A DNA stretch of 52,128 nucleotides from a virus (Duplodnaviria; Caudoviricetes), in the IMG/VR virus record IMGVR_UViG_3300005613_000085, positions 1 to 52,128 of that record; one strand, 5' to 3'. The position numbers were made by a program, and so were the translations under genes. The notes below the pieces were generated by a model that saw nothing but the letters and a program-made list of their open reading frames with translations, was not told where the DNA came from and did no database searches. This document shows positions 2,544-47,971 of the stretch, piece after piece (position 1 is the first letter of the stretch; the number at the start of each line of letters is the position of its first letter).

Positions 2544-2544
2544 T

Positions 2545-5306: not shown

Positions 5307-5307
5307 A

Positions 5308-17142: not shown

Positions 17143-18153
17143 ATGTTATTCAATCCCTTTAATCAAGATGCTTTCACCTTAGTAAATCTGGCGGAAGCAA
17201 TGACTATCTTACCCAATAACTACGGTAGGATCAATCAATCAGGGATCTTCAAGGAGAAGGGAAGTAACAGCCGGACTATCTTAGTTGAAATGAAGGACGG
17301 TGTATTAAACCTGTTACCAACTAAACCTGTTGGAGCCCCTGGTAGTGAACTTAACCGTGGTTTGAGAAATGTCCGATCTTTGGTCATTCCTCATATCCCT
17401 GCTCATGATGTTATTCTCCCTCAAGAACTTGAAGGTATTAGAGCTTTCGGTACAGAAGACCGACTGGTCGCTCTAAGTGAGATCATGGCAGAACATCTTC
17501 AGTCTGCTAAAGACAAGTTCGCGATTACCAAAGAGTATCAGAGAATTACTGCATTGAACGGGTCTGTGTTAGATTCTGACGGTGCTACTGTGCTCTTTAA
17601 CTGGTATGAAGAGTTCTTGATGAAGCAGAAGACCGTGACATTTACTGTCTCTGGTACTGAAGATCCTCGGAAACCTGTATTAGAACTTAAACGTTATATG
17701 GAAACTCATCTTAAAGGTGAGACCATGAACGGTTATCACTGTTACGTTGACAAAGATTTCTTCGACGGTATTACTCAATATGGTGAAATGAAGACTGCCT
17801 GGGATAGGTGGAGAGAGGGTGAATTCTACCGATCAGATATGAGAAACAGATTTGAATTCTGCGGCATCGTATTTGAAGAGTATGAAGGAACTGCCGATGA
17901 CAGAGACGGTGTGGCAAGGAAGTTTATTCCTTCTAAGTATGGTTACTGTTACCCAACAGGTACCAGTCAGATGTTTAGAAGTTATTATGCTCCTGCTAAC
18001 CGATTCAGCACAATCAATAAGCCAGGCCAAGAGAATTATGTATGGCAACGGATGAGAGACGATGAGTCTGGTATCGACCTTTGGTTCGAGACTAATCCAA
18101 TGCACATGGTAATGAGACCTGAATTGATAGTTAAGGTATATTGCCAGACTTAA
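17143..18153 (+). CDS. Major capsid protein (lambda E-like)
   Basis: Position and size; IPHIPAHDVILPQE, EYQRITALNG, FEFCGIVFEEY, ETNPM...RPE. Confidence 0.92.
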   Translation: MLFNPFNQDAFTLVNLAEAMTILPNNYGRINQSGIFKEKGSNSRTILVEMKDGVLNLLPTKPVGAPGSELNRGLRNVRSLVIPHIPAHDVILPQELEGIRAFGTEDRLVALSEIMAEHLQSAKDKFAITKEYQRITALNGSVLDSDGATVLFNWYEEFLMKQKTVTFTVSGTEDPRKPVLELKRYMETHLKGETMNGYHCYVDKDFFDGITQYGEMKTAWDRWREGEFYRSDMRNRFEFCGIVFEEYEGTADDRDGVARKFIPSKYGYCYPTGTSQMFRSYYAPANRFSTINKPGQENYVWQRMRDDESGIDLWFETNPMHMVMRPELIVKVYCQT

Positions 18154-19215: not shown

Positions 19216-19941
19216 ATGCCAGTTGTTAAATCATTAAGTATAGAGATTAACTCAGAGCAATTAAACGCTGTGCGGGGTTTAGTGGAGAAGTTTGGTAAAA
19301 AAGCACGCAAGCCTTTAGCCTGGGCGATTAATAAAACCATGACAGGCAGTGCAACGGCCAGGGGCACTGGTGGTTTGATTAAAGACTCTGTTGATGAAAT
19401 GGCAAAATATATCAACTTACAAAAAGGAATATTAAAGAAAGGCCCACATTCACCTGGGCATAAAGCGTCAGAGAAGAATCGTGTATGGAGTGTGGAGAAA
19501 TCAACTCCTGATGATTTAGGTGGAAAACTGTCCTGTACGAGTAAGAATCTCCAACTAATCCACTATTCTAATCAACGTGGCAGTGCGAGAGCTCATGCTA
19601 AATCAATATTTGTTCAGGTATTAAAAGAGCGCAAGAAAAAGAAGATGAAAGGTGTGTTTATTCCTAAGCTTAAGTCCGGTCACATCGGATTATTTACTCG
19701 TGTAAAAGAATCAAACGCAATTACTCCGAGAGGAAAACAAGCATACAAAAAAGGGCGATCAGGCAGGGCGAGAATAAGAGAACTCTACGGGGCCAGAATT
19801 AGTGATTTTTACTCGAATACTCCGATGCTTGACGAGATTATTATGAAGAAAGCAGGAGAGAGATTAGATAAGAATTTAGCTCACGAAATAGATTATTTTA
19901 TAACTAAAATGAACAGCCAAGCGGAGGGAAAAAAGAAATGA
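19216..19941 (+). CDS. Tail completion/neck protein (gpZ-like)
   Basis: Basic protein; AINKT, FIPKLKSGHIGLFTR, IRELYG, RLDKNLAHEI. Confidence 0.75.
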   Translation: MPVVKSLSIEINSEQLNAVRGLVEKFGKKARKPLAWAINKTMTGSATARGTGGLIKDSVDEMAKYINLQKGILKKGPHSPGHKASEKNRVWSVEKSTPDDLGGKLSCTSKNLQLIHYSNQRGSARAHAKSIFVQVLKERKKKKMKGVFIPKLKSGHIGLFTRVKESNAITPRGKQAYKKGRSGRARIRELYGARISDFYSNTPMLDEIIMKKAGERLDKNLAHEIDYFITKMNSQAEGKKK

Positions 19942-31000: not shown

Positions 31001-32068
31001 GGAGAAGAGCAAATACAGATAATGGAGGAGACTGCACAGTCGTTTGAAGATCTCAAAAGCGAAATAGAAGAAACAATTAGTGCGTTAGATGATTACCTCG
31101 AAAAGATGGAAGAGATAACAGATGCCATAGATGATCAAGAAGATAGTGTGGATGAGTTAGAACGAGAGTTAGCACAGTACGAAAAGGCTTTAAAGCGCAT
31201 TGAAGATGGTATTAGTACCGAACAGATAGAGAAAGATTTAGAGAGAATTCGTAACGAGATTAAAGAGGTCGAGAGAGAACTTGACTACCTCTACAGTCAA
31301 CCTTATTCCCCTGAAAATGAAGCTAAGATTAAGAAGTTAGAGAGAGAATTAGAGTATTTAAAAAGAGAAGAAGATATACTTAATAAGACCATGGAAGACA
31401 GCGCAGCGGCCAGAGAAGAGTTCGAGCGCAAGATCCTGGACTTAAAAAAAGAGATTTGGGAAGCACAAAAAGAAATCAATGATCTAGCTGGTGACTTACC
31501 CGATGTCATAGGCGATGCATCTAAAGAGTGGGATGAATGGATGGGTAAGATTGGTGATGCTAAAGAGCGCCTTCGAGAACTTTACGACATGGGGTTGATC
31601 AGTAAAGCAGAATTTGATCTGGCAATGAAATATCTCAATGAGTTAGAACAGAAAGTTACAGGGTTTTTAGATGAACTTGAAGCTATGGGCATCGAAGATG
31701 TAGAGGAGATACAAAGAGAAACAGGGGAGAAGCAGCTTAGGGCGATAGAAGCACTTAAAGCTGAAATAAGAGCACAGACAGCAACATTAGAAGCATATCT
31801 TGATGAACAAATGGCCCTGCAATCTCAGTTAATTCATAAACAAATGGAACTGGTTGATGCTCAAATAGAACAAATAGAAGCCCGGACAGCTATGATGAAG
31901 AAGGGCGACAGTATGATAAAGATTCAAGGCGACGGGCTGGAACCGGAACTCGAAGCTTTTATGTGGAAAATACTTGAAAACTTACAAGTCAGGGCCAATC
32001 AAGAATTCAGCGAATTCCTCATTGGTCTCCGCGGTCTTAACCTAACATCGACGACAGGATCATTATAA
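28094..32068 (+). CDS. Tail tape measure protein (TP901-type core)
   Basis: 1324-aa helical protein; SNTYATNVEKLA.GM..LAP.A..VG.S..ET, SGEEAATALKT. Confidence 0.92.
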   Translation: MANIARTVEILFSAKDQMSMKLTGINQALELLEKTVNALLDPLAQLGDAIIEVDKVIAGYARTLGSDVLDASMDLESVLIDLKRLLGEQTEQFDDLVEASRELSREFGVALEDVIQSVIEFKRANFDAKESLDLTREALTLVRVGFVDMHTATESLVKILKGFGAEADKANEIVDILSITSNTYATNVEKLAIGMGELAPIASKVGFSMAETAGLATKVIEVFQSGEEAATALKTGFTRLATGSAQVQKAYDKLKISGKDANGMLKDGKTMLGEIAAAMGKFTEAEQVQISAWLVGNRQAQKMVDIFTDYDKVIKIGIKALSDRQYAEKQLVEVMKATKFQLEKMETGWIELKAAMGDEFLPVLSLILQGLHEIETALTDTVNEGVLKDIADRLLKYGDEIKKYLQGIATAIPEALKGVDVGPLLDSWDNVASTLSKVFDTAKIENAEDLAEKVQVLVNAMTLLVNITNGMIKPWTDLTNKLLETIPILAEVEGEVATSFGNILGHVQMIKKMGFIWYGVYRAMGNDVETFQDRAVLVADKIAKKQAEEKIHLLKKQEAWDSVLSYIEGRLYNLTLGLDDSSKRTYEWTLRHRESLKKLEEAEKKFTETFVGNKGEYTKALEEQRKANEETEKSFGTLIKEGEEYSLTIEELASEINDLPQLAEIDIKTKTPIPELNEELIEYGITIKELPDGKVIVVTTELEPEADWNKVDAIWNARRAAMNTSIDLTFEIDTHTLDRVVTSANKAINEGIPTEKSVKILLDGIDVFYDALDKIQYELEEVEPTKEVEARLTEVKAFREKLNSMVKLLDEAPSAHNVKFVLDGITKALKDIETLQEKLDATPKNVKIDVEVDGVEEAIASFDGLHVKIGETPEEVEVKVKVDEKSFEAVTKRIDALAKHANEKLKLEATINVAEIEAAASAMVASIEAEANKAIAVINSLASSIAAVSNNVGGMFSSLVGLYDRIIDLGEEQIQIMEETAQSFEDLKSEIEETISALDDYLEKMEEITDAIDDQEDSVDELERELAQYEKALKRIEDGISTEQIEKDLERIRNEIKEVERELDYLYSQPYSPENEAKIKKLERELEYLKREEDILNKTMEDSAAAREEFERKILDLKKEIWEAQKEINDLAGDLPDVIGDASKEWDEWMGKIGDAKERLRELYDMGLISKAEFDLAMKYLNELEQKVTGFLDELEAMGIEDVEEIQRETGEKQLRAIEALKAEIRAQTATLEAYLDEQMALQSQLIHKQMELVDAQIEQIEARTAMMKKGDSMIKIQGDGLEPELEAFMWKILENLQVRANQEFSEFLIGLRGLNLTSTTGSL

Positions 32069-35000
32069 TGCAAATGAAATTAATAATAACAACATTGAAT
32101 ATGGATCTCAACAGTCCACTGATGTTGAACGTCGATGTCAGTGACTCTGAGTTAGAGGTATTGACAAGGAGAGTTAATAGAAGTGCGACACTTGATACTG
32201 GGAGTGTGATTGATGATCATGGGTTCTCTCAGGGTGATAGGGATTTGGTGTTTAGGATCAGTGATGCCAGTGAGAGTGATATTACGAAGTTGAAATACTT
32301 TTTGCAGAGGTATTCGGAGTTAAGGATAGCATTTAACGAGGGGATCTTCCTTGTTAATTTCAATAAGATGGATAATGACTTTGGTGATGTGGTATTGACT
32401 TTTTTTGTGAGTGAAGTAATTGTACTGTGCCAAAGATATCCAGTTGTTTATACAACAACGACAAGCGCAACGACTATATCAACGACAACTACAACGACAA
32501 CAGTAGATTTTGACTGTGAGTACGATGATTTAACATTCGATGATGCTAATAAATGGAATCTAAGTAATGGAGCTGTACTTGCCGGTAATAAACTAACATT
32601 CAGCCCTAGAGGTAACGCTGTTTATGTATATACACCTTCAGACGAAGCTAATTACTGTATTGAAGTTCGTGTATCTGATTTTATATGTGATGATCCTTAC
32701 TCAGGTACGGGTCCAACTTTTGCTTTTCAAGTAGATGGTAAGTTCCGAAGATGGACAACTGAAGAAACATATGTTAGATGGACTGGTAATGAGAGTAAAA
32801 CATGGTGGAGAAAGCCTGGTGGCGGTGGTTGGTTCCCTGTAACTCATCATAGAACTATAAAACGAAAGTATACACGCACAATTTACCACTACTCTGGTTA
32901 TAAGGGTTATGCTCGAATACGGTGTTATCCTATATTTGATTGGAGTGCAAAGGAACATCGATACGCAGTGGATATGGAATGGTATCAAATTGGTTTAGTA
33001 CCCTATAGTGAGCGAACGAGCTATACCGCTCCTAAAATAGTAACCACAGTACCTTCGCTATTTAGAATTCAAAGGTCTGGTAATTTAATAGGTGGGTACT
33101 TCTATAGTGATAACAGTTGGACATTAATAGGATCGCGGGATTTTGAAACTAGACACCTTAAAGAAATACGGTTAATAGGAGATACAACTTTTCGAGGCGG
33201 CGGTTCTGTAAGTGTTGATCGTCTTAGATTTGTTACATGTCTTGGTACGGGCAGGTTAGCCTGGTGTAATGCCGGTGACGATATCATGTCTTCTATGGAT
33301 CATTGGAAAGTTATTAGTCAGTCCGGGGGTGGCACAGCTACAGCCGGAGAAACTGACGGTCTTTTATTAACTCTTCCTAGCGGTATCCAACCTCCGGGAT
33401 CTCCATCAGAAGTCACTATACTACATCAGTACGTGACAGATGCTGTTCTAGGTACAGAGAATGCAACAGAGTTTATTGTAGATATAGCCGCAATTACATC
33501 TGATAGTGCCGATTTTAACAATAGTGACACTTACACCTACCGTAGTTGTATGTTAAGGATTAAATGGTCAGACCCTCTTATACCCACGAATTATACAATT
33601 GTAGATATAGATAGATCAGGTACTAACGAAGACCCGTCATATTGGAGATGTAGGGTACGTACATACCATTTAGGGGTGCTTGAACTTGATAGTTACGCGG
33701 AGTATGGCTGCCCCTTAGAGGGTGCCGATGCTGGTATGGGGGAGATTAGAATTAGACGAGAAACATACGATATATATGACTGCGTTTCCGTATGGTGGAC
33801 TCCTACGATCTCTGAGGATGAAGATAGTGCACCTAATGATGCTGGTGTTTTAAGTGAAGAGAATAGCACTTGGTTAAATGTAGCTAACCCTGTAGATACA
33901 CCAGATGCGTATACGACATTAGTTCACGGTGTAGGTGAGTATAAAGATTTTGAATTACAAGGTATTGCCGGTCAAGATAGTGGAACTATAGTATTAGATG
34001 GGCTGACAACTGATGCTGGTTGTCCAGGATGTGATACACCAGCGTTAACACAATGGACAACAACAACGACATCATCAACGACATCGAGCTGTAGTACCAC
34101 AGAGTCAACAGCATCGACATCCTCATCCTGCTCAACGATATCAACTTCATCTTCAACCTGCTCGACAATGTCAACTTCATCTTCAACCTGCTCGACAATA
34201 TCGATTTCATCATCTTCATCATCTTCATCATCTTCTTGCTCAACTCAATCATCACTCTCATCAACATCAACCTACCCAACATGCCCTTACGATGACGGTT
34301 TTACAACATTCGACCTTTGGCAAGTAACAGACAAAGAAGATGGCAGTGAGACAGCGACGATCATTGGGAACAAACTACGATTAACACTAGCACATGACCC
34401 GGAAACACATCCTAGTTCAGCTATAACAATAGCATACAAATACCTACTTCCTACTGGTGATTTTAAAATAACATTGAAGTTCTCTGATTTTGTCACCGCT
34501 GGTTATTATAAACCTACATTTTACTTCAGAGCGCAGTCGGAAGATGAAGACGATAATATGATCGAAGGGGAAGTAACCGGTAAAGACAGGACTTTTGATG
34601 TTAGCTGTCGTTACTGTGGATCATCTACTTCTGATGGATGGACATTAGGTGCTGACGACGATCAAATATGTCTTGCTCGTGTCGGTAATGTCTTATCTGT
34701 ACATACTGGTAAAGATGGCATATGGACTGATTCATGGTCTAAAGATGTCATAGAGTGCGCACAGCACATAGATAGATTATACATTAAGCTGTTTGATTAT
34801 TATTCAGATGGTGGATCAGTTGATATAGATGAATTAGAATTCTGGTATGGCTGCCCTACGGGGTCCGCGACGGTATGGACATCTACAACAACATCGACAA
34901 CGTGTTCGACTGCAAGTACGTCAACGTTGTCATCTACTTGTTCAACGCTGTCAACGTTGTCAACAACCAGCTCGACGATATCAAGTACGTCATCATCTTG

Positions 35001-36792
35001 TTCGACATGTTCTACTTGTTCGACTTGTTCAACACTATCAACAGCATCTACACTATCAACGGCATCTACGTTATCAACGACCAGTTCAACAACGTCATCA
35101 TCTTCATCTACGTGTTCGACGTGTTCGAGCTGTTCAACTTGTTCGACTTGCTCAACTTGTAGTACGCTATCAACGCTATCTACAATTAGTACAACATCTT
35201 CATCATCCTCTTCGACTTGCAGTACGCTATCGACGCTGTCAACGACAAGTTCATCGTCATCATCAAGTACCTGCTCAACGTGTTCGACTTGTTCAACGAT
35301 GTCTACAGAATCGACTACATCATGCTCGACGTGTTCGACTTGTAGTACATTATCGACACTGTCAACGACTTCTTCTTCATCTTCGACTTGTTCGACTTGT
35401 TCAACACTGTCTACGGAATCAACAACCTCTTCTTCTTCTTCAACCTGTTCTACATTGTCAACGCATAGTATAACAACGACATCGAGTTCAACACAATCAA
35501 CGATGTCAACATCAACATCATCTTGCTCGACTTGTTCAACGGCATCGACTGTATCAACGCAGTCTACAACATCATCTTCTTGCTCTTCAACATGTTCGAC
35601 ATTGTCAACGTTATCGTCATGTTCGACTTGCTCGACATGTTCTACTTGTTCGACTTGCTCAACCTGTTCAACGTGTTCAACACTGTCTACATCATCATCA
35701 TCTTGCTCTACTTGCTCGACATTATCTACACTTAGTACGACATCAAGTTCTACATGTTCTACATGTTCAACATGTTCAACACTGTCAACGATATCAACTA
35801 CGTCGAGTTCGACTTGTTCAACATCATCAACTACATCATCCTCGACGTGTTCGACTTGTTCAACATCATCAACTACATCGTGCTCTACATGTTCGAGCTG
35901 TTCAACGTGTTCAACACTATCAACTAATTCGACAACGTCATCTTCGTCTTCGTCTACTTGTTCGACTCTCTCAACGCAGTCAACATCCTCATCCTCTTCC
36001 TCGACATGCTCGACTCTCAGTACGCATTCAACGTCCTCTTCTTCCACGTCAACTTGCTCTTCACTCTCAACAACATCTACTTACCCTACTTGTGAATACG
36101 ATGAAGACTTCGACTCTGGTGTTGGTGACTGGAAAGTAGTTTATACCTATATAGGTACAGAGACTATGACAGCCGTAGGTAATAAACTAAGATTGACTGT
36201 AGTAGATTCTAATGGGAGTGGAATACAAACTAACTATCTATATAAAGTACCTGCTGGTGATTTTGATGTACAGGTAACAATATCTAACTTCGTGTTTAAC
36301 GGCGATGATAGACTTCGGGCTGCTTTAGGGGTCGTAGCTACTAATCAGCATTTTGATAACTCAACGGGTTTTGTGATTAAATCGTACCCAACAGATCCTA
36401 CAGATAATGTAGATGTTTTATGTAGTCGTTATTTAGACGGTGGTACCAGTTCAGGTAATTGGGATAGTGATATAGGGGCCTTCACTACACTGTCACTTAG
36501 AATTACGCGAGTAGGTACAACTATGAAGGGTTATTACCAAAAAGACTCGGGTTCTTGGGTCTTAAGTTGGTCAACTGAACATGAAGATATGACATTAGCT
36601 GATAGGGTTATCTTAGCATTACGGGAATACAACGGTGGCAATGACGGTGGTTCGGTTGATTTCGATAATCTGAAGTTTAATAAAGCAGAGTGTCCGACTG
36701 GAGATACCTGGTCAACTACAACGACATCAACAACATCAAGCTCCACTTGTTCAACCTATTCAATAACTACAACAACAGAGGCACCACCATAA
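32068..36792 (+). CDS. Distal-tail-like N-terminal domain fused to four ConA-like domains and Ser/Thr/Cys tracts
   Basis: Follows the tape measure gene; N-terminal ~120 aa with RRVNRSATLD.G.VI.D.G...GDR; repeated CxxDDxF...W...RxG...GGSVDxD...C modules. Confidence 0.7.
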   Translation: MQMKLIITTLNMDLNSPLMLNVDVSDSELEVLTRRVNRSATLDTGSVIDDHGFSQGDRDLVFRISDASESDITKLKYFLQRYSELRIAFNEGIFLVNFNKMDNDFGDVVLTFFVSEVIVLCQRYPVVYTTTTSATTISTTTTTTTVDFDCEYDDLTFDDANKWNLSNGAVLAGNKLTFSPRGNAVYVYTPSDEANYCIEVRVSDFICDDPYSGTGPTFAFQVDGKFRRWTTEETYVRWTGNESKTWWRKPGGGGWFPVTHHRTIKRKYTRTIYHYSGYKGYARIRCYPIFDWSAKEHRYAVDMEWYQIGLVPYSERTSYTAPKIVTTVPSLFRIQRSGNLIGGYFYSDNSWTLIGSRDFETRHLKEIRLIGDTTFRGGGSVSVDRLRFVTCLGTGRLAWCNAGDDIMSSMDHWKVISQSGGGTATAGETDGLLLTLPSGIQPPGSPSEVTILHQYVTDAVLGTENATEFIVDIAAITSDSADFNNSDTYTYRSCMLRIKWSDPLIPTNYTIVDIDRSGTNEDPSYWRCRVRTYHLGVLELDSYAEYGCPLEGADAGMGEIRIRRETYDIYDCVSVWWTPTISEDEDSAPNDAGVLSEENSTWLNVANPVDTPDAYTTLVHGVGEYKDFELQGIAGQDSGTIVLDGLTTDAGCPGCDTPALTQWTTTTTSSTTSSCSTTESTASTSSSCSTISTSSSTCSTMSTSSSTCSTISISSSSSSSSSSCSTQSSLSSTSTYPTCPYDDGFTTFDLWQVTDKEDGSETATIIGNKLRLTLAHDPETHPSSAITIAYKYLLPTGDFKITLKFSDFVTAGYYKPTFYFRAQSEDEDDNMIEGEVTGKDRTFDVSCRYCGSSTSDGWTLGADDDQICLARVGNVLSVHTGKDGIWTDSWSKDVIECAQHIDRLYIKLFDYYSDGGSVDIDELEFWYGCPTGSATVWTSTTTSTTCSTASTSTLSSTCSTLSTLSTTSSTISSTSSSCSTCSTCSTCSTLSTASTLSTASTLSTTSSTTSSSSSTCSTCSSCSTCSTCSTCSTLSTLSTISTTSSSSSSTCSTLSTLSTTSSSSSSSTCSTCSTCSTMSTESTTSCSTCSTCSTLSTLSTTSSSSSTCSTCSTLSTESTTSSSSSTCSTLSTHSITTTSSSTQSTMSTSTSSCSTCSTASTVSTQSTTSSSCSSTCSTLSTLSSCSTCSTCSTCSTCSTCSTCSTLSTSSSSCSTCSTLSTLSTTSSSTCSTCSTCSTLSTISTTSSSTCSTSSTTSSSTCSTCSTSSTTSCSTCSSCSTCSTLSTNSTTSSSSSSTCSTLSTQSTSSSSSSTCSTLSTHSTSSSSTSTCSSLSTTSTYPTCEYDEDFDSGVGDWKVVYTYIGTETMTAVGNKLRLTVVDSNGSGIQTNYLYKVPAGDFDVQVTISNFVFNGDDRLRAALGVVATNQHFDNSTGFVIKSYPTDPTDNVDVLCSRYLDGGTSSGNWDSDIGAFTTLSLRITRVGTTMKGYYQKDSGSWVLSWSTEHEDMTLADRVILALREYNGGNDGGSVDFDNLKFNKAECPTGDTWSTTTTSTTSSSTCSTYSITTTTEAPP
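34880..36081 (+). repeat. Ser/Thr/Cys tract 3 (about 400 aa)
   Basis: CSTCSTCSTLST repeats; shorter tracts at 34057-34272 and 36711-36780. Confidence 0.95.
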
Positions 36793-37421: not shown

Positions 37422-38507
37422 ATGCCAAAATTTAATGACTACCCAGATGGTAATCCCCATTGGATTGATTATGTTTTATTCTATGATCAGACTGACGGGA
37501 AGGTTAAAAAGTGTCATATAGAACAGATACTTGAGTTAGCCGGGCTGACCAGTACATCAACAACGACGACATCGAGTTCGAGTTCGAGTTCATGTTCATC
37601 ATGTTCGAGCTGCTCAACCTGTTCGACGTGTTCTACGTGTTCTACGTGTTCTACGTGTTCGTCTTCTTCATCTTCTTCTTGCTCTTCGTGCTCAAGTTGC
37701 TCTACTTGTTCCTCCTGTTCGACGTGTTCTAGCTGTTCATCATGCTCAACTTGTTCTTCGTGCTCAACTTGTTCGACCTGTTCGACTTGTAGTACGATGT
37801 CCACCCATTCTACAACGTGCTCTACTTGCTCGACTTGCAGTACGATGTCTACGGCATCGACTTCTTGTTCTACTTGCTCAACTTGCAGCACGGCGTCTAC
37901 AGCATCAACCTCTTGCTCAACTTGCAGCACGGCGTCTACAGCGTCAACCTCTTGCTCAACTTGCAGTACAATATCTACGGCATCAACTTCTTGTTCTACT
38001 TGCTCGACGTGCTCGACGTGCTCAACAATATCCACAGAGTCAACTACCTGCTCGACTTGCTCGACATATTCGACTCTTAGTACAACATCAACAACGTCAT
38101 CCTCATCTTCATCTACCTGCTCTACCTGCTCAACTCTATCAACGGCATCAACTACCTGCTCTACCTGCTCAACTCTATCAACGGCATCAACTACCTCATC
38201 CACATGCTCAACTTGTTCAACATGTTCAACTTGCTCTACTTCATCGACTTGCTCAACCATATCAACAGCCTCTACATCTTCTTCTACATGTTCAACATTA
38301 TCAACACAATCAACTTCATCTTCTTCATGCTCCACATCCTCAACATGCTCTACTCTTAGCACACAGTCAACCACTTCATCTTCTACCTCATCATCCTGTT
38401 CTACTTCTTCAACTATATCAACTCTATCAACTACCTCTTCCTGCTCATCTACATGCTCTACAATGTCAACGGAATCGATAACAACTACATCAGAGGATCA
38501 CGGTTAA
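37422..38507 (+). CDS. Cys/Ser/Thr repeat protein with a 40-aa N-terminal anchor-like domain
   Basis: RBS AGGAGG; about 315 aa of (C-S-T/S)n with roughly 50 Cys. Confidence 0.8.
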   Translation: MPKFNDYPDGNPHWIDYVLFYDQTDGKVKKCHIEQILELAGLTSTSTTTTSSSSSSSCSSCSSCSTCSTCSTCSTCSTCSSSSSSSCSSCSSCSTCSSCSTCSSCSSCSTCSSCSTCSTCSTCSTMSTHSTTCSTCSTCSTMSTASTSCSTCSTCSTASTASTSCSTCSTASTASTSCSTCSTISTASTSCSTCSTCSTCSTISTESTTCSTCSTYSTLSTTSTTSSSSSSTCSTCSTLSTASTTCSTCSTLSTASTTSSTCSTCSTCSTCSTSSTCSTISTASTSSSTCSTLSTQSTSSSSCSTSSTCSTLSTQSTTSSSTSSSCSTSSTISTLSTTSSCSSTCSTMSTESITTTSEDHG

Positions 38508-39885: not shown

Positions 39886-41169
39886 ATGAAAATTGCATTA
39901 ATGACTAACTTCAGTAAGTTCCAACCTTATTACTCATTAACATACGTCGTCAAAGATACGGCAGAAATGCTTGCCAGATACAATCACGAAGTCCATCTAT
40001 TTGTCTCCAATAAATGGAGAGATGCTGAAGATCAATTCGCGCCGGGGGTTATAGTAGAGAAGAAAGTACCTCACGGTAATCTCAGAGATTACGGACCCAA
40101 TGAAGAGGAACTTATACCTGAACATAAGTTACTCCGCAACAATACTGCACAGATGTTTAGAAAAGAACTTGCTGAAGGGTATGAGTTGGCAATCACAGAG
40201 GATTTTGTATTCCAGAACTGGAACAAGCCTTATGGATTAGCTATTCAAGATGCGACAAAGGATCTTCCAAACGTCCGCTGGCTGCATAGAATCCATTCTG
40301 TACCAACAGTACAAACTACTTGGTGGAATATCAGGAATTACGGGGGTAAACATAAATTAGTCTATCCGAATAAAACCGATGCATTGAGAGTTGCTGAGAT
40401 GTATAAAGGATGGTTGGAAGATGTAAGAGTCATCCCGCATATCAAAGACCTCCGGACTTGGTTTGAATTCGGCCAAGACACAAGGGATATTATTGACTGG
40501 TGCCCGCAGATTATGCAAGCTGATATCGTTCAAATCTATCCTTGCAGTGTTGATCGATTACATGCGAAGAGGTTAGATGTTGTCATTAATATCATAGCCA
40601 ATATCAAACGCCAGATGCGCTCAGTGTGTCTCGTTGTCGTACCTCAATGGTGTACGCACGATAAACAAAGAGCGATAATGGAAGAGTATAAAGTTCTGGC
40701 AGTAAAACAGGGATTAGATATCGGTACTGATATTGTATTTACGCCTGAATACCCAGGGGCTCCGAAAAGATTCGCTGTTGGTGTGGATCGTAGAGTTATA
40801 AGGGAATTGCAATTATGCTCTAATTTATTTATATTCCCTACTGATCATGAAACATTCGGATTAGTCTTGCCTGAAGCCTGTATCACTGGTTGTCCTATTA
40901 CTGTATTGAATCGATCACTAGCAATGATGCCTGAAATCTCAGGGTACAATGGCTTATTCTTTGACTTTGGATCTTATACTCAGAGAGTTGATCGTCCTTC
41001 AGAATCCACTGATCGGTTTTATAAAGATCTTGCTATGATTATATTAGGGGAATATAACCATAATAAACCAGTGCAAATGAAGACTTGGATGAGACAGAAA
41101 TATAACATGAACAGAATATATCATCATTACTACGCCCCTATCATAGCGGAGAGTAAACAATGGGCCTAA
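39886..41169 (+). CDS. Glycosyltransferase, GT-B fold (GT4-like)
   Basis: MKIALMT, HEVHLFV, NLFIFPTDHETFGLVLPEACITG (Ex7E). Confidence 0.85.
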   Translation: MKIALMTNFSKFQPYYSLTYVVKDTAEMLARYNHEVHLFVSNKWRDAEDQFAPGVIVEKKVPHGNLRDYGPNEEELIPEHKLLRNNTAQMFRKELAEGYELAITEDFVFQNWNKPYGLAIQDATKDLPNVRWLHRIHSVPTVQTTWWNIRNYGGKHKLVYPNKTDALRVAEMYKGWLEDVRVIPHIKDLRTWFEFGQDTRDIIDWCPQIMQADIVQIYPCSVDRLHAKRLDVVINIIANIKRQMRSVCLVVVPQWCTHDKQRAIMEEYKVLAVKQGLDIGTDIVFTPEYPGAPKRFAVGVDRRVIRELQLCSNLFIFPTDHETFGLVLPEACITGCPITVLNRSLAMMPEISGYNGLFFDFGSYTQRVDRPSESTDRFYKDLAMIILGEYNHNKPVQMKTWMRQKYNMNRIYHHYYAPIIAESKQWA

Positions 41170-41231: not shown

Positions 41232-41585
41232 ATGGATGCAGACATAAATGAAGTATCTATTAACGGTAGTGTTTATGTATTAAAAGCCGACAAGCAAGAA
41301 GTAATTAAAAATTATGTAATTATCCGTACATACGCAGCAGGTTGTCATGCCGGTGAGCTTGTTAGTAAGAATGATACTGTAGTAACTCTGCGTAATGCTC
41401 GCAGGTTGTATTACTGGTCCGGAGCTGCTACACTATCTCAACTAGCAATGGAGGGTGTAAGTAAGCCAGAGAAGTGTAAGTTCCCTTGTGAGGTAGGAGA
41501 AATTACACTACAATGGATAGAAATAATCCCATGTACTCAAAAAGCTATAGATAGTATAAAGGGGGTCACTATATGGTCAGCATAG
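41232..41585 (+). CDS. Conserved small phage protein (DUF6948-like)
   Basis: YVIIRTYAAGCHAGEL...NARRLYYWSGAATLSQLAMEG...IEIIPCT; RBS AGGAG before ATG 41232. Confidence 0.7.
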   Translation: MDADINEVSINGSVYVLKADKQEVIKNYVIIRTYAAGCHAGELVSKNDTVVTLRNARRLYYWSGAATLSQLAMEGVSKPEKCKFPCEVGEITLQWIEIIPCTQKAIDSIKGVTIWSA

Positions 41586-41815
41586 AAATTAACGGAGACA
41601 GAAACGGAGATGGATACGGAGACAAATACGGAGACGGATACGGATACGGACACGGACACGGACACAGATACGGAGACGGAGACGGATACGGACACGGACA
41701 CGGAACCGGATACGGAAACGGAGACGGAACCGGAAACGGAGACAGACCCGGAGACGGAAACGGAAACGGAGACGGAAACGGAAACGGAGACAGATGCGGA
41801 CACGGACACGGGTAA
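41573..41815 (+). CDS. Gly-X dipeptide repeat protein (GDGYGHGNG)
   Basis: RBS AAGGGGG; hexamer repeat GGA-NNC. Confidence 0.65.
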   Translation: MVSIEINGDRNGDGYGDKYGDGYGYGHGHGHRYGDGDGYGHGHGTGYGNGDGTGNGDRPGDGNGNGDGNGNGDRCGHGHG

Positions 41816-42057: not shown

Positions 42058-42298
42058 AAGTAAAGTAGTAAATAAAAGCTCGGTACCAGTAGTTAATCTT
42101 ATAGATAAATACCCATGTGTAGGTATCTCGGATAATGGTACAGTCGTCTTATTTACATCCCCGCCGTCATACGGGGTGGTTTTACATGTCGATGATAACA
42201 ACCCTCATAATACTATAGGGGAGATTTCAGCTTCATGGGCGTTGGATGTATTTACACTACTTCCAAAGGACAAGCACGTGGAGATCAGTAATGCCTAA
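42050..42298 (+). CDS. Hypothetical protein, similar to ORF 152..559
   Basis: RBS AGGAGG; YPCVGISDNGTVVLFT...GVVLH...W..D.F..L. Confidence 0.7.
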   Translation: MIKSKVVNKSSVPVVNLIDKYPCVGISDNGTVVLFTSPPSYGVVLHVDDNNPHNTIGEISASWALDVFTLLPKDKHVEISNA

Positions 42299-43433
42299 AC
42301 AAAAACTCATCTACTTATATACATCAGACCGACCAGCAAATGACGCTAAACGTGAAATCGTCATGACCCCTACTAAGAATAAATTCGCCACTGAAGCCCC
42401 TACTGACGGTATGATCAAAATGTGGTGCGAACTCGCTGGCCGGGACATTGTGAATCAAGTTGACATCTTCATTGACTCCCACATTAACTGTGGTTACAAA
42501 GCTTTAACACCGAAAGCCAATCTCTATGTAGTACCGAACATGGATATCGTCAGGGATTATATTTCCCCTGGCGATATCGTTATCGCTCGTGGCGGGTTCA
42601 AACCTTGGTATAAAACACTGACTGAGATCTACAATGAAAGGCAGAATTGGATACTGTTCTACCGTGCTAATACCAATCGCAATCCTTGGCCGTTCTGGGA
42701 TATTATATTGGATGACCTGTTGCGAAAGTCATCGGTAATGCACTTGAATCGCTTCTGGTTTAAGTTTTCTAAGCCTGTTAATGAAGAGATATTTAAATAC
42801 GATCCGAAGATTGGCAAGAGCTATGGCAAGCATTATAATGTCTGTATCGGTGCGAGTCACGTTCACAAGAAGAAAGGCCAGTTCGTAGGCGTGAGAGCAT
42901 TAAAAGCGTATACTAAATACTATAATCATAAACTCTCAGCGGTGCTGCCTGGTGGATTTATCTCTTGCATGTATAATAGAGAAATACTTGATGCTCATAG
43001 CCGGGGTATAGTCGATGTGACTCGCCATATGACAAGGCAATTATTGTGTGAGTTATTTAATCGTACTGAAGTGTTTATTCATGCCGGTCCTGGGGGTCAA
43101 AACGACCGTGGGGTGTTAGAAGCTATGTGTTGTGGACTGCCTGTGATATTAACATCACCGAAGAGGTTTAGTGACTTTGTATCTTACGGTCCCAATGCCG
43201 TAGCTAAACAAGATCCGTTGGATATTGCACATTGGATTAGATCGATACGTAAGGATTCACCTACTCGCAGTGGTGTTAAGCAGTGGTACCAAGAACATAA
43301 CGGGTTAAATGAAGTTTGTATACCAAAGATGATTAAGTTATTTAACTGGATGAATCAATTCTCCGGTCCAGTCAGGCCTAAGATGAAGAACCCGAGGGAG
43401 ATTGTTCCCTGGGTTAAGGAGAGTGGTATATGA
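42291..43433 (+). CDS. Glycosyltransferase, GT-B fold (GT4-like)
   Basis: HKKKGQ, VFIHAGPGGQNDRGVLEAMCCGLPVI; start re-called at ATG 42291. Confidence 0.8.
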   Translation: MPKQKLIYLYTSDRPANDAKREIVMTPTKNKFATEAPTDGMIKMWCELAGRDIVNQVDIFIDSHINCGYKALTPKANLYVVPNMDIVRDYISPGDIVIARGGFKPWYKTLTEIYNERQNWILFYRANTNRNPWPFWDIILDDLLRKSSVMHLNRFWFKFSKPVNEEIFKYDPKIGKSYGKHYNVCIGASHVHKKKGQFVGVRALKAYTKYYNHKLSAVLPGGFISCMYNREILDAHSRGIVDVTRHMTRQLLCELFNRTEVFIHAGPGGQNDRGVLEAMCCGLPVILTSPKRFSDFVSYGPNAVAKQDPLDIAHWIRSIRKDSPTRSGVKQWYQEHNGLNEVCIPKMIKLFNWMNQFSGPVRPKMKNPREIVPWVKESGI

Positions 43434-43642
43434 GATTAATTAAAACATATGATATATTTGTACCCGCTGAGGATGTTCATGAAGCAGTCTCCGATAAGCA
43501 TACCGATCTCGTAAAACATGCTAATGTATATAATCTACTCCGCGAGGCATTTAAACTTGGTAGAGAAGCTGAACAAAAGGATAGAGCAGAAGAAGCCGCA
43601 GCTAAAGAAGGAGGCATAGTTCACAGTGTACAATCTAAATGA
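43430..43642 (+). CDS. Hypothetical protein
   Basis: ATGA-coupled 70-aa ORF. Confidence 0.6.
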   Translation: MRLIKTYDIFVPAEDVHEAVSDKHTDLVKHANVYNLLREAFKLGREAEQKDRAEEAAAKEGGIVHSVQSK

Positions 43643-44288
43643 AGCATACAATCAGAAATTCTTCGCACGCCGCAGATCCCTTGAATGGCGCGTGCCGATA
43701 TTCGTCGATGCCATCGAACAAGTCTATCACCCTCGAACTCTAATCGACTTCGGTTGCGGTGACGGTGATTTAGTCCGAGGGTTTAACTCTGTCGGTGTCA
43801 ACGCATTTGGAGTCGAAGGCACAGTTAATTGCTTACCTTATATAAGACTTGCAGTGGCAAAGATACCAGATCCGGACAATCCACCTTTATTAGGTATTCA
43901 GAATCGTATTATGATTCATGATTTGAGAAAGCCAATCGTAAAACTATTTGAGTATGATGATTTTAACCTCAACTCCGGTGTAGATGTTGCACTGTGTCTG
44001 GAAGTTGCTGAACATCTCGAAGAAGAATTCGCACATAATTTAATTCGTAATATCATTCTGTCTTCAGATAAGATTGTCTTTACTGCTGCACCTCCAGGAC
44101 AAGAAGGTAATCACCATGTTAATCTCAAATCCCGTGATTGGTGGATTGGATTATTCGGCGAGTATAAATACGTGTTTGATTATGAATCAACAAGCATGGT
44201 TAAGTATTTATTAGAGAGATCTGGTAAAGCTAAAGTCAAGGGGATTAAAGCTTGGTACCAGAACTTAATGTGTTTTAAAGGGGTATAA
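43626..44288 (+). CDS. Class I SAM-dependent methyltransferase
   Basis: LIDFGCGDG, CLEVAEHL, FTAAPPGQEGNHHVN; RBS GGAGG before GTG. Confidence 0.88.
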   Translation: MYNLNEAYNQKFFARRRSLEWRVPIFVDAIEQVYHPRTLIDFGCGDGDLVRGFNSVGVNAFGVEGTVNCLPYIRLAVAKIPDPDNPPLLGIQNRIMIHDLRKPIVKLFEYDDFNLNSGVDVALCLEVAEHLEEEFAHNLIRNIILSSDKIVFTAAPPGQEGNHHVNLKSRDWWIGLFGEYKYVFDYESTSMVKYLLERSGKAKVKGIKAWYQNLMCFKGV

Positions 44289-44289
44289 A

Positions 44290-45114
44290 ATGAAACTTGA
44301 TATTACAATGACAGCAACGAAACGCCCGGCTATACTGGAACGTACTTTACGTAGTTTCAGGCAGAACTTATTCCGCCCTAATTTATGCATCGACTACCAA
44401 TTGATAGTCAACGTAGATCCAATAGGCGAAATGGTACCTATCAGTTATATCCATGATCTATGTGCTGATTTCTTTCCTCATCCGATTATCATCACGCAAC
44501 CTACAGCACATTTCGGTGTAGCTTTTCACCGTGTATGGTTTTTGGCAGATTACAGACAGGGATTTGATTGGAGACCAGAATTTATATTCCACCTTGAAGA
44601 TGACTGGGAATGTACAAGGACTGTGGATTTGTATGCGATGATCGACAGTATGCGTAGTGGGTATAAAATAGGGATGTTAAGACTATCAACAGTAGGTACT
44701 GAAGGTAATTGTCTGAGACAATGGGGGCATACTTTTAATTGGAATGGTGAGTTTTATGAAATACCAGATGAAGATCAAGCCAAACTCAGGGTTTCAGGAC
44801 ATCCATCGTTGATTAATCCAGAGTTCATTCATCAAGTCTTACCTTATATGAACCCGGATAAAAATCCAGAGAAACAGCTATGTGAAGGTTCACCATTCAT
44901 TGGACTGATTATTAAACAATATCGTTTCGGAGTATTCAACACGCCTGGATTACCAGCAAATATCCGCGACATCGGGCGTGAATGGATGATTAAGAATGGA
45001 TTTAATAAACAAGGCAATAAGGCCTACTTTACACAATGGGAGAATAAGAATGGAAGAGAAGAAAGAAGTGAAAGAAGTTCAGAAGCAAGAACAGCTTGTG
45101 AATCAGTCTACTAA
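44290..45114 (+). CDS. Glycosyltransferase, GT-A fold
   Basis: ITMTATKRPAILERTLRSF, FIFHLEDDW, HPSL, DIG. Confidence 0.75.
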   Translation: MKLDITMTATKRPAILERTLRSFRQNLFRPNLCIDYQLIVNVDPIGEMVPISYIHDLCADFFPHPIIITQPTAHFGVAFHRVWFLADYRQGFDWRPEFIFHLEDDWECTRTVDLYAMIDSMRSGYKIGMLRLSTVGTEGNCLRQWGHTFNWNGEFYEIPDEDQAKLRVSGHPSLINPEFIHQVLPYMNPDKNPEKQLCEGSPFIGLIIKQYRFGVFNTPGLPANIRDIGREWMIKNGFNKQGNKAYFTQWENKNGREERSERSSEARTACESVY

Positions 45115-45427
45115 TTCGCAGATACCAGTACAGAAAGAGAATATAAAAGAACCTCAGCCTGTACAACCTACAAATCCGAAGCGCCGGGTAAGAAAGATCG
45201 ATGATATTATTAACTTCGATGGAGAACTATACAGAGTCTATAAGATAAAAGACGATGGAAAGAAAGTCGGTCTGTGTCGGTTAAGTCGAGAAGAACAACA
45301 TAAAGTTCGCTTAAAAATCCAAGCACAGCAAGAAGCCGCGATTCGTAGAACAAAAGAACTTGGAGTTGATCAGAAGAGAGTAATTGATGTACCACCAGTA
45401 GAGCAATCAAAGGGGGCTATTAAGTGA
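45050..45427 (+). CDS. Hypothetical protein
   Basis: Charged ORF within the GT operon; start re-called at ATG 45050. Confidence 0.55.
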   Translation: MEEKKEVKEVQKQEQLVNQSTNSQIPVQKENIKEPQPVQPTNPKRRVRKIDDIINFDGELYRVYKIKDDGKKVGLCRLSREEQHKVRLKIQAQQEAAIRRTKELGVDQKRVIDVPPVEQSKGAIK

Positions 45428-46461
45428 AACTTTCAGTCATAATACCTTTCGTCAATGAGTACCCGCAGATTATTTTCACGCTGCAATCCGTATTCAACGA
45501 AATCAAAGACATCGACGCAGAGGTTATTGCAATTGACAACTTCTGCCCGGAAATATTAGAGCAAGAATATGAAACACCATCAAATGTTTGTTCGTTCTGC
45601 TTTGAAAAGCTCGATGTGTACCGTACACGGGACTGCGGAGGATTTCAAGTTAAAGGGTATTCCGAGAAGATCACGAACCTTAAATACGAAGTATATGACA
45701 AGAAACTCTCCCACTGGAACGCAAAAAACCACGGGGTCCGGAGGTCTGAAGGTTCCGTGTTGTTGTTCTTAGACGCACATGTGGTTCCCAGTCCGGGTAG
45801 TATTAAACTTATGTATGATAGGTTCGTACTTGAAAACCCCAACGGCACATATCATCTTCCCCTAACTTACATGCTAGACCTCAAAAAGCAGCTCAAATAT
45901 CGACTCGATGTTGACCCCTCACGTTCGTATTTCGGGTATAGTTTTGCAGGATATGAACCAGTACAGGCTAGGCCAGAAGCTGTAGCATGTATGTCAACGT
46001 GTGGCATGATGATGACAAGAGAACTATTCGATCAAATGGGTGGTTGGCCGGAAGAACTCGGTATCTACGGCGGTGGTGAAAACTATATGAACTTCGTCCT
46101 TGCTACCATGGGTAACTCCAAATGGGTATGTCCTGTGGGGCCGTTGTATCACCTCGCTGCACCGAGAGGGTATTATTATAACTACGATGACTTTATCCGT
46201 AACCGTGCTATTGCTATGTATATGACGACAGGTTCTATAGAAGAGGCTTGGAATTATCTAAAACACTGTCAAGGTAATAATGAAATACTGCGTAGTATTT
46301 ATGCGAGTATATTTGAGACAGGATCGAGTCAATATAGTATCCGGAAACACCAAGAGCAGTTGAAGAATCATCAGGTTATTGATATTCATACTTGGTTGGA
46401 TCAAATGAAGTCCAAGGGGTTGTATGATGGATCGATATCTAAGAAGGAGTATGTTTCATGA
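45424..46461 (+). CDS. GT-A glycosyltransferase with DxH and Gal/GalNAc-T-like motifs (copy 1)
   Basis: LSVIIPFVNE, AKNHGV..S.G..LLFLDAH, MGGWPEELGIYGGGENY, LYH. Confidence 0.85.
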   Translation: MKLSVIIPFVNEYPQIIFTLQSVFNEIKDIDAEVIAIDNFCPEILEQEYETPSNVCSFCFEKLDVYRTRDCGGFQVKGYSEKITNLKYEVYDKKLSHWNAKNHGVRRSEGSVLLFLDAHVVPSPGSIKLMYDRFVLENPNGTYHLPLTYMLDLKKQLKYRLDVDPSRSYFGYSFAGYEPVQARPEAVACMSTCGMMMTRELFDQMGGWPEELGIYGGGENYMNFVLATMGNSKWVCPVGPLYHLAAPRGYYYNYDDFIRNRAIAMYMTTGSIEEAWNYLKHCQGNNEILRSIYASIFETGSSQYSIRKHQEQLKNHQVIDIHTWLDQMKSKGLYDGSISKKEYVS

Positions 46462-47474
46462 AAAAGCTGTCAGTAATAATGCCTTTTGTCAATGAAGCCT
46501 GGGCAGCATTCACTCTCCAATCTCTTATCTTAGAGCTTGAACAATCCGACTTTGAATGGGAGATCATCTGTATCAACAACTGGTGCGAGCGGGTAGCGAA
46601 TCAAGTTATTAACTCAGAACCACCAAGGACTAGAGTAGAATTAAATCAATTCATATACAAAACAGATGACCGTTGGGGCCAGAAAATGCAAGGTCTCTGT
46701 GCGGTAAGGAGTAATACAATTTATGTGGAATTCACCGACAAGCTCTCCCACTGGAATGCCAAGAATGCCGGAGTGGAAAGATCAACCGGAGATATCTTAT
46801 TCTTTATCGACGCACATTGCCTTATTACCCAAGGAAGACTCAGGCAAATGTATGAATGTTATGTGGAGAATGCCGATGAGATTCACGGGTCACTGCACCT
46901 CCCCATTGCATATCTTGGTGCCAACGCGGGTCAAAGTCTCATATATAAACCGGTAATGACACCAGAGAAAGGTGAATATCACTACTCTTTTACTCGGTAC
47001 AGAACATCAAACCATCCATACACTGTTCCCTGTATGTCTACATGCGGAATGATGCTATCAAAAGAGATATTTAATAACCTCGGCGGCTGGCCTAAAGAAC
47101 TCGGGATCTATTCAGGGGGTGAGCATTTTATGAACTTCACCCTCGCTGTCCTCGGCTATAACAAAGTGATATTCCCTGGACTACCACTGTACCATGAAGG
47201 CAAAGAGAGGAGAGGTTATTCATCTGATGCCAGTGATATGATTCGCAATAGATTCATTGCAACATATATGTACGGTGGCGATGACTTGTTAGAGCTATAT
47301 GCTAAGTATTCAAAAGGCCGACCTAATGTAAAGGAGATGTATGTTGAAGAGATTAAAAACAAATGTCATACACAGAGAAGTATGATAGCCCTAAGCCAGA
47401 AATGCTATATTGATTATTGGTGGAAAGGCTGGGCAGGGAGATTGTTATCAATTAACATGGAGCCATACAAATAA
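46458..47474 (+). CDS. GT-A glycosyltransferase with DxH and Gal/GalNAc-T-like motifs (copy 2)
   Basis: LSVIMPFVNEAW, STGDILFFIDAHC, LGGWPKELGIYSGGEHF; clear paralog of copy 1. Confidence 0.85.
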   Translation: MKKLSVIMPFVNEAWAAFTLQSLILELEQSDFEWEIICINNWCERVANQVINSEPPRTRVELNQFIYKTDDRWGQKMQGLCAVRSNTIYVEFTDKLSHWNAKNAGVERSTGDILFFIDAHCLITQGRLRQMYECYVENADEIHGSLHLPIAYLGANAGQSLIYKPVMTPEKGEYHYSFTRYRTSNHPYTVPCMSTCGMMLSKEIFNNLGGWPKELGIYSGGEHFMNFTLAVLGYNKVIFPGLPLYHEGKERRGYSSDASDMIRNRFIATYMYGGDDLLELYAKYSKGRPNVKEMYVEEIKNKCHTQRSMIALSQKCYIDYWWKGWAGRLLSINMEPYK

Positions 47475-47971
47475 TGCATGATGAATCGATGAAAGCAATG
47501 GGGGACTTCCTTGGCACTTTAGAGTTTTACGAACATTATAATATACTTGAAGTGGGGTCATTAAGAGTAGGTGGGGATCGATCTTACGCAGATCTCATGC
47601 CCGCGCACTGGAATTATACTGGATTAGATTTAGTAGCTGGCCCTAATGTAGATATCGTAGCAGAACATCCTTATGCTTACCCATTCTTACCTAATAAATT
47701 CGATATCATTATCTCCGGCCAGGCAATCGAACACGTTGAAGATCCATTTAGATGGGCTGCGGAACTCTATAGAATATTAAAACCAGGCGGTCAAATCTGT
47801 ATCATCGGCCCTTCGACAGGACCGGAGCATCATCGACCTGATTACTGGCGGATATTACCAGATGGTATGATTGCATTGTTACATGCCGGGGGGTTTATTG
47901 AAATAGTAATTACACCATATAATGACCGTAGATGGCATACATTGAGAGCTGTAGCGAGTAAATTAAAATGA
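47474..47971 (+). CDS. Class I SAM-dependent methyltransferase
   Basis: ILEVGS, YTGLD...GPNVD, FDIIISGQAIEHV, RILKPGG, DYWR. Confidence 0.88.
   Translation: MHDESMKAMGDFLGTLEFYEHYNILEVGSLRVGGDRSYADLMPAHWNYTGLDLVAGPNVDIVAEHPYAYPFLPNKFDIIISGQAIEHVEDPFRWAAELYRILKPGGQICIIGPSTGPEHHRPDYWRILPDGMIALLHAGGFIEIVITPYNDRRWHTLRAVASKLK

Follow-up and report, generated by a model that had tools for sequence, protein, structure and literature searches.

The 52,128-bp IMG/VR record IMGVR_UViG_3300005613_000085 (hereafter the window, meaning the whole stretch of DNA that was analysed) is a near-complete genome of an uncultured tailed phage (Duplodnaviria; Caudoviricetes), with an estimated completeness of 97%. 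It encodes, in tandem, two GT-A glycosyltransferases (GTs) whose fold most closely resembles that of the eukaryotic polypeptide GalNAc-transferases (ppGalNAc-Ts; CAZy family GT27). Genes of this GT27-like family are found in uncultured phages together with a glycosylation cassette and with proteins that carry very long Ser/Thr tracts. We assign a probability of roughly 0.5 to the reading that the pair work in the cytoplasm as Mn-dependent O-glycosyltransferases and add the first sugars to mucin-like structural proteins of the phage itself. That they take part in glycosylating the phage tracts, at whatever step, is considerably more probable. Given the co-occurrence with Ser/Thr-tract proteins and the analogy of fold, action on Ser and Thr residues of peptides is plausible.

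The upstream paralog (45424..46461, + strand; 345 amino acids, GTG start) contains the motifs LFLDAHV, IYGGGEN and LYH, and the downstream paralog (46458..47474, + strand; 338 amino acids, ATG start) contains FFIDAHC, IYSGGEH and LYH. The first-pass annotation, made from the letters of the DNA, had placed two such open reading frames (ORFs) here, and a script located both of them and found every motif it had quoted, in colinear order: SVIMPFVNEAW at residue 5, AKNAGVERSTGDILFFIDAHC at 101, PCMSTCGMMLSKEIFNNLGGW at 191, LGIYSGGEHFMNF at 215 and LYH at 244 of the downstream paralog, and LGIYGGGENYMNF at 212 and LYH at 241 of the upstream paralog. One of the likenesses to GT27 that it drew, the NEAW motif, is present in the downstream copy but is not conserved, the family consensus at that point being NEYPQ. 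With 42% identity over 276 residues (E 1e-67), the pair are true paralogs, and chance resemblance is excluded. Overlaps of the pair with each other and with their neighbours measure 4, 4, 1 and 4 nt (GTGA, ATGA, TAATG and ATGA), an arrangement usual for translationally coupled genes and suggestive of an operon. Neither protein has a membrane segment (maximum Kyte-Doolittle 19-residue mean 1.2) or a type II membrane anchor; both start directly with the first β-strand. Because no hydrophobic segment is present, we read the enzymes as soluble and cytoplasmic, and they would share that compartment with the phage tract proteins.

Structure prediction and comparison with GalNAc-Ts, a check that the first-pass annotation had put forward, bore out the resemblance. 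With the AlphaFold2 (AF2) model of the downstream paralog (predicted local distance difference test score, pLDDT, 94.3; predicted template modelling score, pTM, 0.92), a Foldseek search of the PDB gave ppGalNAc-Ts as 31 of the 31 matches listed (ranks 1–50; best E 2.2e-16). VIA-align, a structural aligner independent of Foldseek that was run over 48,161 representative chains, likewise placed ppGalNAc-Ts at the top, namely mouse GalNAc-T1 (Z 25.7; 291 residues aligned, root-mean-square deviation 3.3) and Toxoplasma GalNAc-T3 (TgGalNAc-T3; Z 24.9, 282 residues). The next family was headed by heparosan synthase (Z 18.9, 218 residues), with WrtF (Z 18.3, 232 residues), the chondroitin polymerase K4CP (Z 18.2, 231 residues) and SpsA (Z 17.5, 217 residues) below it. 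Identity to the GT27 structures is ~13–17%. As an internal control we used the 274-amino-acid GT-A encoded in the same cassette (AF2 pLDDT 89.7), which yielded a flat list led by POMGnT1 (15.2), B4GALNT1 (15.1) and GnT-I (14.7), and which reached GalNAc-T1 at a Z of only 12.8 (rank 18). Since the control shows no such preference, the preference for GT27 is specific to the GT27-like family and not a property of any GT-A. A structure search of BFVD returned generic phage GT-A matches only.

At the level of sequence, both paralogs match PF00535 (Pfam Glycos_transf_2; E ~1e-11, 1.3e-11 for the upstream copy; 45.2 and 43.8 bits, where the cutoff is 23.3), a model that spans the nucleotide-binding half only. 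The same model is matched by all 43 sequences of alignment A1, which comprises 41 homologs and both paralogs. Homologs of the pair number 303 at E ≤ 1e-3, all of them derived from metagenomes and none informatively named. Searched against the PDB with phmmer, both paralogs matched ppGalNAc-Ts, weakly (E 0.026–0.79; 0.27–0.79 for the upstream copy), and the sole other row was an unrelated ribosome-assembly protein at E = 1. The A1 profile found 30 PDB sequences at E ≤ 1, 15 of which are ppGalNAc-Ts, matched over profile positions ~83–265, the region from DxH to the downstream His, at E-values from 5.7e-6 to 0.34; the best single E-value (3.8e-6) belongs to the prophage-encoded TarP and covers essentially the first 53 positions only. 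Invariant across the 43 sequences are D118 and H120 (the DxH motif), G220, G221, E222, N226 and H246, and the upstream paralog keeps all invariant family columns. In the HMMER alignment FIDAHC is paired with FLD(A/C)HC, and H246 with the His of the VGHVF stretch of GT27. In GT27, the DxH motif and the downstream His bind the metal. GT27 enzymes are retaining and have an E-N motif where inverting GT7 enzymes have acidic residues; the family consensus at this motif is E-N (E-H in the downstream paralog), which fits a retaining mechanism and would be compatible with one here. A C-terminal ricin-type lectin domain is typical, though not universal, of GT27. The first-pass annotation had noted its absence, and indeed no such Pfam match occurs in either protein or in the 43 family members; a search for longer fused forms brought up a single protein, composed of GT2, the family domain and a C-terminal extension, again with no lectin domain. 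PF11397 (GT60-type polypeptide GlcNAc-transferase) has no match in the window at E ≤ 10 and none in the 43 members at E ≤ 1. One distant family member, P0240 (metagenome, 423 amino acids), carries a fused N-terminal PqqD domain (E 1e-10; hhalign probability 99.8%). PqqD domains are the peptide-recognition elements of ribosomally synthesized and post-translationally modified peptide (RiPP) systems, and this fusion hints, as a weak lead, at peptide acceptors in the wider family. Viral and metagenome scans for relatives of P0240 gave only one, 29% identical, on one contig.

The family is essentially confined to uncultured phages. Against 1.84 billion entries, the A1 profile returned 1484 representatives at E ≤ 1e-3, 243 at ≤ 1e-10 and 123 at ≤ 1e-30, the 123 being clusters at 50% identity. 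We collected 70 IMG/VR loci with a family member, in viral contigs of ~10 to 277 kb, and neighbours of the family in the Atlas are 90–97% viral. No family homolog was found by tblastn (E 1e-5) in 50,697 GenBank phage records, and PHROG, with 38,880 families, has none for the GT27-like proteins. Among 185,579 cellular species genomes, we found six contigs of metagenome-assembled genomes (MAGs; L153–L158), all with the same cassette and probably phage or prophage DNA that ended up in the bins. Deltaproteobacteria/Desulfobacteraceae is the label of four, and the other two come from archaeal bins (Thermoplasmatota and Thorarchaeota); as a weak hint, the labels point toward Desulfobacteraceae as host range.

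The tandem duplication is specific to one lineage. The family gene is single in 68 of 71 sources, with two copies in the window and in locus L005 and three in L059. In a quick tree (SH-aLRT support, midpoint root; 72 rows reduced to 65 by dropping ORFs shorter than 280 amino acids and identical duplicates), the upstream paralog groups only with the upstream copy of L005 (support 99) and is the derived copy, and the downstream paralog groups with the single-copy orthologs of L003 and L004 and with the downstream copy of L005 (support 96). From these groupings it follows that the duplication predates the split between the window phage and L005, and that the downstream copy is the orthodox one. 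The suggestion that the paralogs divide Ser from Thr, or first from follow-up sites, finds no support, as the great majority of sources are single-copy; one enzyme therefore suffices in most phages.

Family loci are associated with Ser/Thr tracts. We first defined a tract-bearing gene as an ORF of at least 150 amino acids that has at least one 60-residue window of at least 60% Ser+Thr and lies within ±10 kb of the locus. By this definition 29 of 70 family loci are positive, with 48 such ORFs in 1.26 Mb, all on the strand of the GT gene (26 of 67 after near-identical loci were collapsed, L031 with L042 and L039 with L040 and L068), compared with 0 of 80 control loci (0.66 Mb). The controls were anchored on terminase since a capsid-anchored scan gave a single locus. 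A second definition, 16 consecutive WSN codons anywhere in the whole record, is satisfied by 29 of 34 family-bearing records, including 8 of the 9 that are at least 90% complete, and by 0 of 50 controls. The built-in control of this pattern search is uninformative because (WSN)n reversed equals its own complement. We considered whether the tract ORFs might be frame artefacts and rejected this, the Ser/Thr frame alone being continuous with the flanking globular domains.

Three proteins of the window are candidate substrates. The first (20208..26393, + strand; 2061 amino acids), whose gene lies just after the Neck1 gene, has an N-terminal ConA-like lectin domain (Laminin_G_3 at residues 306–382, E 4.4e-13), two very long Ser/Thr/Cys tracts parted by a globular segment, and a globular C-terminus. 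It also has a weak Pfam match to a β-propeller (E 0.001), and a 126-nt repeat at 20612–21112 (3.7 copies, 86% matches) encodes units of ~42 amino acids (...NGKLYGGT...NLLEWNGTNAWVEKAPKHD...) in its N-terminal part. The second (32068..36792, + strand; 1574 amino acids) starts at the stop of the tape-measure-like gene and carries Ser/Thr/Cys tracts between globular modules. The third (37422..38507, + strand; 361 amino acids) consists almost entirely of (Cys-Ser-Thr)n after an N-terminal segment of ~45 residues, with tandem repeats. Together the tracts of the window comprise 2192 residues, of which 42% are Ser, 31% Thr and 9% Cys. Elsewhere, tracts are 60–85% Ser+Thr, Pro-poor and nearly Cys-free. 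When ten Ser/Thr-tract ORFs from other loci were searched with Pfam, a domain was named in three (SPRY, LVIVD and Laminin_G_3), all binding-type modules.

The cysteine content of the window tracts is a separate observation: the tracts in 29 other family loci contain 0–2% Cys, against 9% Cys and long exact runs of Cys-Ser-Thr triplets in the window. One may speculate that a period-3 ladder of cysteines in a fibre-like protein serves disulfide or metal cross-linking, or carries S-linked sugars. The idea that the extra paralog serves glycosylation of Cys is unsupported, as L005 has the pair and yet shows ~1% Cys in the part seen.

The pair belongs to a conserved cassette, encoded on the strand of the tail and fibre genes and placed directly behind them. 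Its usual order is GT4-like, small GT-A, GT-B-like, methyltransferase, GT-A and GT27-like. In the window it begins with a GT4-like (Glycos_transf_1) glycosyltransferase (39886..41169, + strand; 427 amino acids; PF00534, 27.1 bits; 58 of 70 loci), a candidate alternative initiator. This is followed by a GT-B-type (Glycos_transf_1-like) glycosyltransferase (42246..43433, + strand; 395 amino acids; PF13692, 27.3 bits; phrog_2170; 39 of 70 loci), an S-adenosylmethionine (SAM)-methyltransferase-like protein (43626..44288, + strand; 220 amino acids; PF13489 at E 1.5e-4, below the curated cutoff; 41 of 70 loci) and the generic GT-A glycosyltransferase used above as a control (44290..45114, + strand; 274 amino acids; 42 of 70 loci). 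The last has an invariant E103-x-D105 in LEDDW (alignment A3) and no sequence match in Pfam, PHROG or the PDB. Immediately downstream of the pair lies a SAM methyltransferase (47474..47971, + strand; 165 amino acids; PF08241, E 5.9e-11) whose start overlaps the stop of the downstream GT gene and which is lineage-specific (1 of 70 loci). The small GT-A-like protein (11817..12512, + strand; 231 amino acids; weak PF00535, E 0.0085; 23 of 70 loci) is encoded between terminase and portal in the window; in other loci (MAG contigs) its homologs follow the GT4-like gene and precede the GT-B-like one. Searches of the other cassette proteins against Pfam, PHROGs and PDB sequences gave generic matches or none. 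The association was also recovered from the opposite direction: a scan anchored on the GT4-like gene, built on an alignment after a single-sequence scan returned nothing, found a GT27-like gene in 55 of 80 loci, and in 50 of the 60 with at least 7 kb of downstream flank, at a median gap of 4.7 kb.

Several other elements lie in or beside the cassette of the window. Between the GT4-like and GT-B-like genes is a DUF6948 protein (41160–41585; PF22253, E 7e-27), a homolog of which is listed in 0 of 70 family loci, and just past it is an array of the hexanucleotide ACGGAG (41592–41811; 36.7 copies, 77% matches), which in a + frame forms a possible Gly/Asp/Asn/His-rich ORF of 80 amino acids (41573..41815). 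An α/β-hydrolase (38648–39622; chlorophyllase/esterase-like, E 4e-7) separates the last Ser/Thr-tract gene from the cassette; it has a 54% identical homolog in L004 and could be a virion-associated esterase.

In the model that follows we infer which acceptor and donor are used, the stereochemistry, the initiating role and the biological function. Late in infection, the GT27-like enzyme would bind a UDP-sugar from the host pool via Mn2+, with the DxH motif and the downstream His as metal ligands; no genes for nucleotide-sugar synthesis were detected by Pfam and PHROG scans of the 52-kb genome, in which several large ORFs are unannotated. It would pass the first sugar to Ser/Thr hydroxyls of the very long tracts in phage structural proteins, probably with retention (α linkage), before virion assembly. 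Other transferases of the cassette may then lengthen the glycan, and the methyltransferases may cap it. This would yield stiff, mucin-like bottle-brush stalks that resist proteases and bear lectin-like domains on the virion, or that shield it. A broader possibility, which we offer tentatively and consider rather doubtful, is that a large undescribed group of uncultured phages builds such "phage mucins", with kilo-residue tracts in structural proteins built up into O-glycosylated bottle brushes by a dedicated cassette, in which a soluble counterpart of the ppGalNAc-Ts, devoid of the lectin domain, takes the first step, and that the family could be a sister lineage of GT27 in prokaryotic viruses, a relation that would bear on the origin of mucin-type O-glycosylation.

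Several observations weigh against initiation on protein by the GT27-like pair. (i) The protein acceptor is deduced from fold analogy and co-occurrence, and the virion placement of the tract proteins from gene position. (ii) The whole-record searches took 35 of the 70 family loci (34 records) and 50 of the 80 control loci, and the controls, many of which are alike, are shorter and derive from smaller phages. (iii) Five of the 34 family-bearing records have no tract, one of them being 96% complete. (iv) The presence of a GT4-like enzyme in the cassette leaves the GT27-like enzyme possibly elongating. (v) The nearest structures after the ppGalNAc-Ts are polysaccharide synthases (heparosan and chondroitin). 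(vi) The Pfam class of the proteins is GT2 only. Glyco_transf_7C (PF02709), the model against which the first-pass annotation had suggested checking them, matches 0 of 43 members at E ≤ 1; in the window its only match, in the upstream paralog at 45997–46074, stays below threshold at 12.1 bits (cutoff 23), and one fused family member clears the cutoff with 27 bits. (vii) The GGE motif (YGGGEN) is one residue longer than the WGGEN of the aligned GT27 chains. (viii) The PqqD fusion is a singleton, as the two closest relatives of P0240 do not have the domain.

What the first-pass annotation said of a resemblance to GT27 stands for the fold, the DxH motif with its downstream His and the PDB matches. 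Strict membership is not supported, with GT2 as the only Pfam assignment, Glyco_transf_7C below threshold and neither lectin domain nor anchor. Because of the sub-threshold Glyco_transf_7C score, the extra residue, the missing lectin domain and the 13–17% identity, we class the pair as GT27-like, a distinct family in the GT2-type GT-A clan, and do not count them among the members of GT27.

The alternative that survives best, which we nonetheless judge unlikely, is that the GT4-like or GT-B-like enzymes would start on Ser/Thr in the manner of GtfA/GtfB and that the GT27-like enzymes would extend the glycan. Bacterial serine-rich-repeat adhesins are initiated in this way, by the GT4 enzyme GtfA. 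The GT4-like gene is as conserved as the GT27-like gene, to judge from the 58 of 70 family loci and the 50 of 60 GT4-anchored loci with enough flank, and, GT27 aside, the structures nearest to the GT27-like model are those of sugar-to-sugar transferases. However, the GT4-like protein shows no specific similarity to GtfA: searched against the PDB, both it and its profile gave weak generic GT4 matches only (BshA-type, E 0.0076–0.058). The GT27-like model, moreover, aligns ~60–70 more residues with ppGalNAc-Ts than with any sugar-extending GT-A, at a Z ~7 higher, and the PqqD fusion in a distant relative also counts against initiation by the GT4-like enzyme.

It is improbable that the target is a glycan of the host envelope (lipopolysaccharide O-antigen, teichoic acid, capsule or S-layer), altered by the cassette to exclude superinfecting phages or to mask receptors in the way of the prophage TarP or Gtr systems, the tracts being unrelated passengers. 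TarP does give the profile's best single PDB E-value, confined to the N-terminal 53 residues; one automatic JGI label reads "glycosyltransferase involved in cell wall biosynthesis"; and phage GTs in such roles are mentioned in the available part of PMC12619734. This explanation leaves the co-occurrence with tracts (29 of 34 records versus 0 of 50) unaccounted for. Pfam and PHROG scans detected no integrase or lysogeny gene in the 52-kb genome, which includes several large unannotated ORFs, and no membrane segment or lipid-carrier enzyme was seen. The position of the cassette directly behind the tail and fibre genes, and the near absence of the family from cellular genomes (the six MAG contigs among 185,579), also speak against it. 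It is very improbable that the enzymes act on DNA, adding sugar to hypermodified bases of the phage so as to escape restriction. Virus-encoded GTs with a role in DNA hypermodification are known (Pyle et al. 2024, as cited in the available part of PMC12619734), but polypeptide transferases are the specific match of the fold, and the association with Ser/Thr tracts would go unexplained. No gene for a hydroxymethylase, a thymidylate-synthase-like protein or a base-modifying enzyme was detected in the genome of 52 kb, a weak point given the several large unannotated ORFs.

The remainder of the window has the gene content of a tailed phage, with a small terminase (2437..3150), large terminase (8132..10096), portal (12712..14301), protease (14912..16183), major head protein (17143..18153), Neck1/tail-completion protein (19216..19941) and a tape-measure-like coiled protein (28094..32068). 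Between the small and large terminase genes, at 3411–8001, lie two large ORFs (631 and 905 amino acids) with zero Pfam and PHROG matches. SAM-methyltransferase genes are found at 10601–11119 as well as at 47474–47971, bringing the methyltransferase-like genes of the genome to three, and glycosyltransferase-like genes number up to six. The final ORF (51539–52126) is truncated by the end of the record and has a Ser/Lys/Thr-rich low-complexity tail and no PHROG match.

Among the closest known systems are the eukaryotic ppGalNAc-Ts (PDB entries 8v9q, GalNAc-T1; 8uhv and 6s22, TgGalNAc-T3; 2ffu, GalNAc-T2), with which the phage GT-A domain aligns over 282–291 of 338 residues and shares DxH, GGE(N) and a downstream His in the same order. 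Long, Ser/Thr-rich, mucin-like tracts are their acceptors, as proposed for the phage family. Unlike them, the phage enzymes have no ricin-type lectin domain, stem or membrane anchor and would be cytoplasmic rather than Golgi-resident, and the phage tracts are Pro-poor and, in the window phage, Cys-rich. Generic GT2 enzymes (TarP, SpsA, K4CP and heparosan synthase) have PF00535 and the N-terminal nucleotide-binding half in common with the phage family, but they align with the phage model over 187–234 residues at Z 16.5–18.9, versus 291 residues at Z 25.7 for GT27, and have DxD where the phage family has DxH. The bacterial serine-rich-repeat systems (GtfA/GtfB) likewise perform cytoplasmic O-glycosylation of very long Ser-rich repeats with a multi-GT cassette of GT4/GT-B and GT-A enzymes; they differ in that GT4 GtfA is the initiator and in that the phage-borne system has no accessory Sec genes.

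In phages, described roles of GTs include DNA glucosylation, serotype conversion and, in mycobacteriophages, the attachment of glycans at the C-terminal ends of capsid and tail-tube subunits (Freeman et al. 2023, as covered in the available part of PMC12619734). The mycobacteriophage case likewise involves phage-encoded GTs shown or proposed to act on the phage's own structural proteins in the host cytoplasm, at subunit C-termini as opposed to the kilo-residue Ser/Thr tracts described here, and no homology of GTs of this type to the GT27-like family was found (tblastn of 50,697 GenBank phage records; PHROG). A precedent for glycosylated, Ser/Thr-rich disordered regions exists in streptococci (available part of PMC12041528). 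Protein O-glycosylation by a GT-A enzyme and glycosylation of phage virions are thus already known in kind. Searches of the main texts in an open-access library turned up neither a GT27-like enzyme described from a phage nor mucin-like phage tracts described together with a glycosylation cassette. What appears to be new is an apparently widespread phage system, distinct from mycobacteriophage glycosylation, that pairs a GT27-like enzyme with mucin-like tracts.

If the GT27-like pair does initiate glycosylation of the tracts, it would provide a soluble relative of the initiators of mucin-type O-glycosylation that is compatible with the bacterial cytoplasm and useful for glyco-engineering. The extreme Ser/Thr low-complexity ORFs of metagenomic phages would be accounted for, and a testable model would be at hand for how phages build extended adhesive or shielding fibres, in a system that is both widespread and experimentally tractable. 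The family would also supply a data point on the evolutionary origin of GT27.

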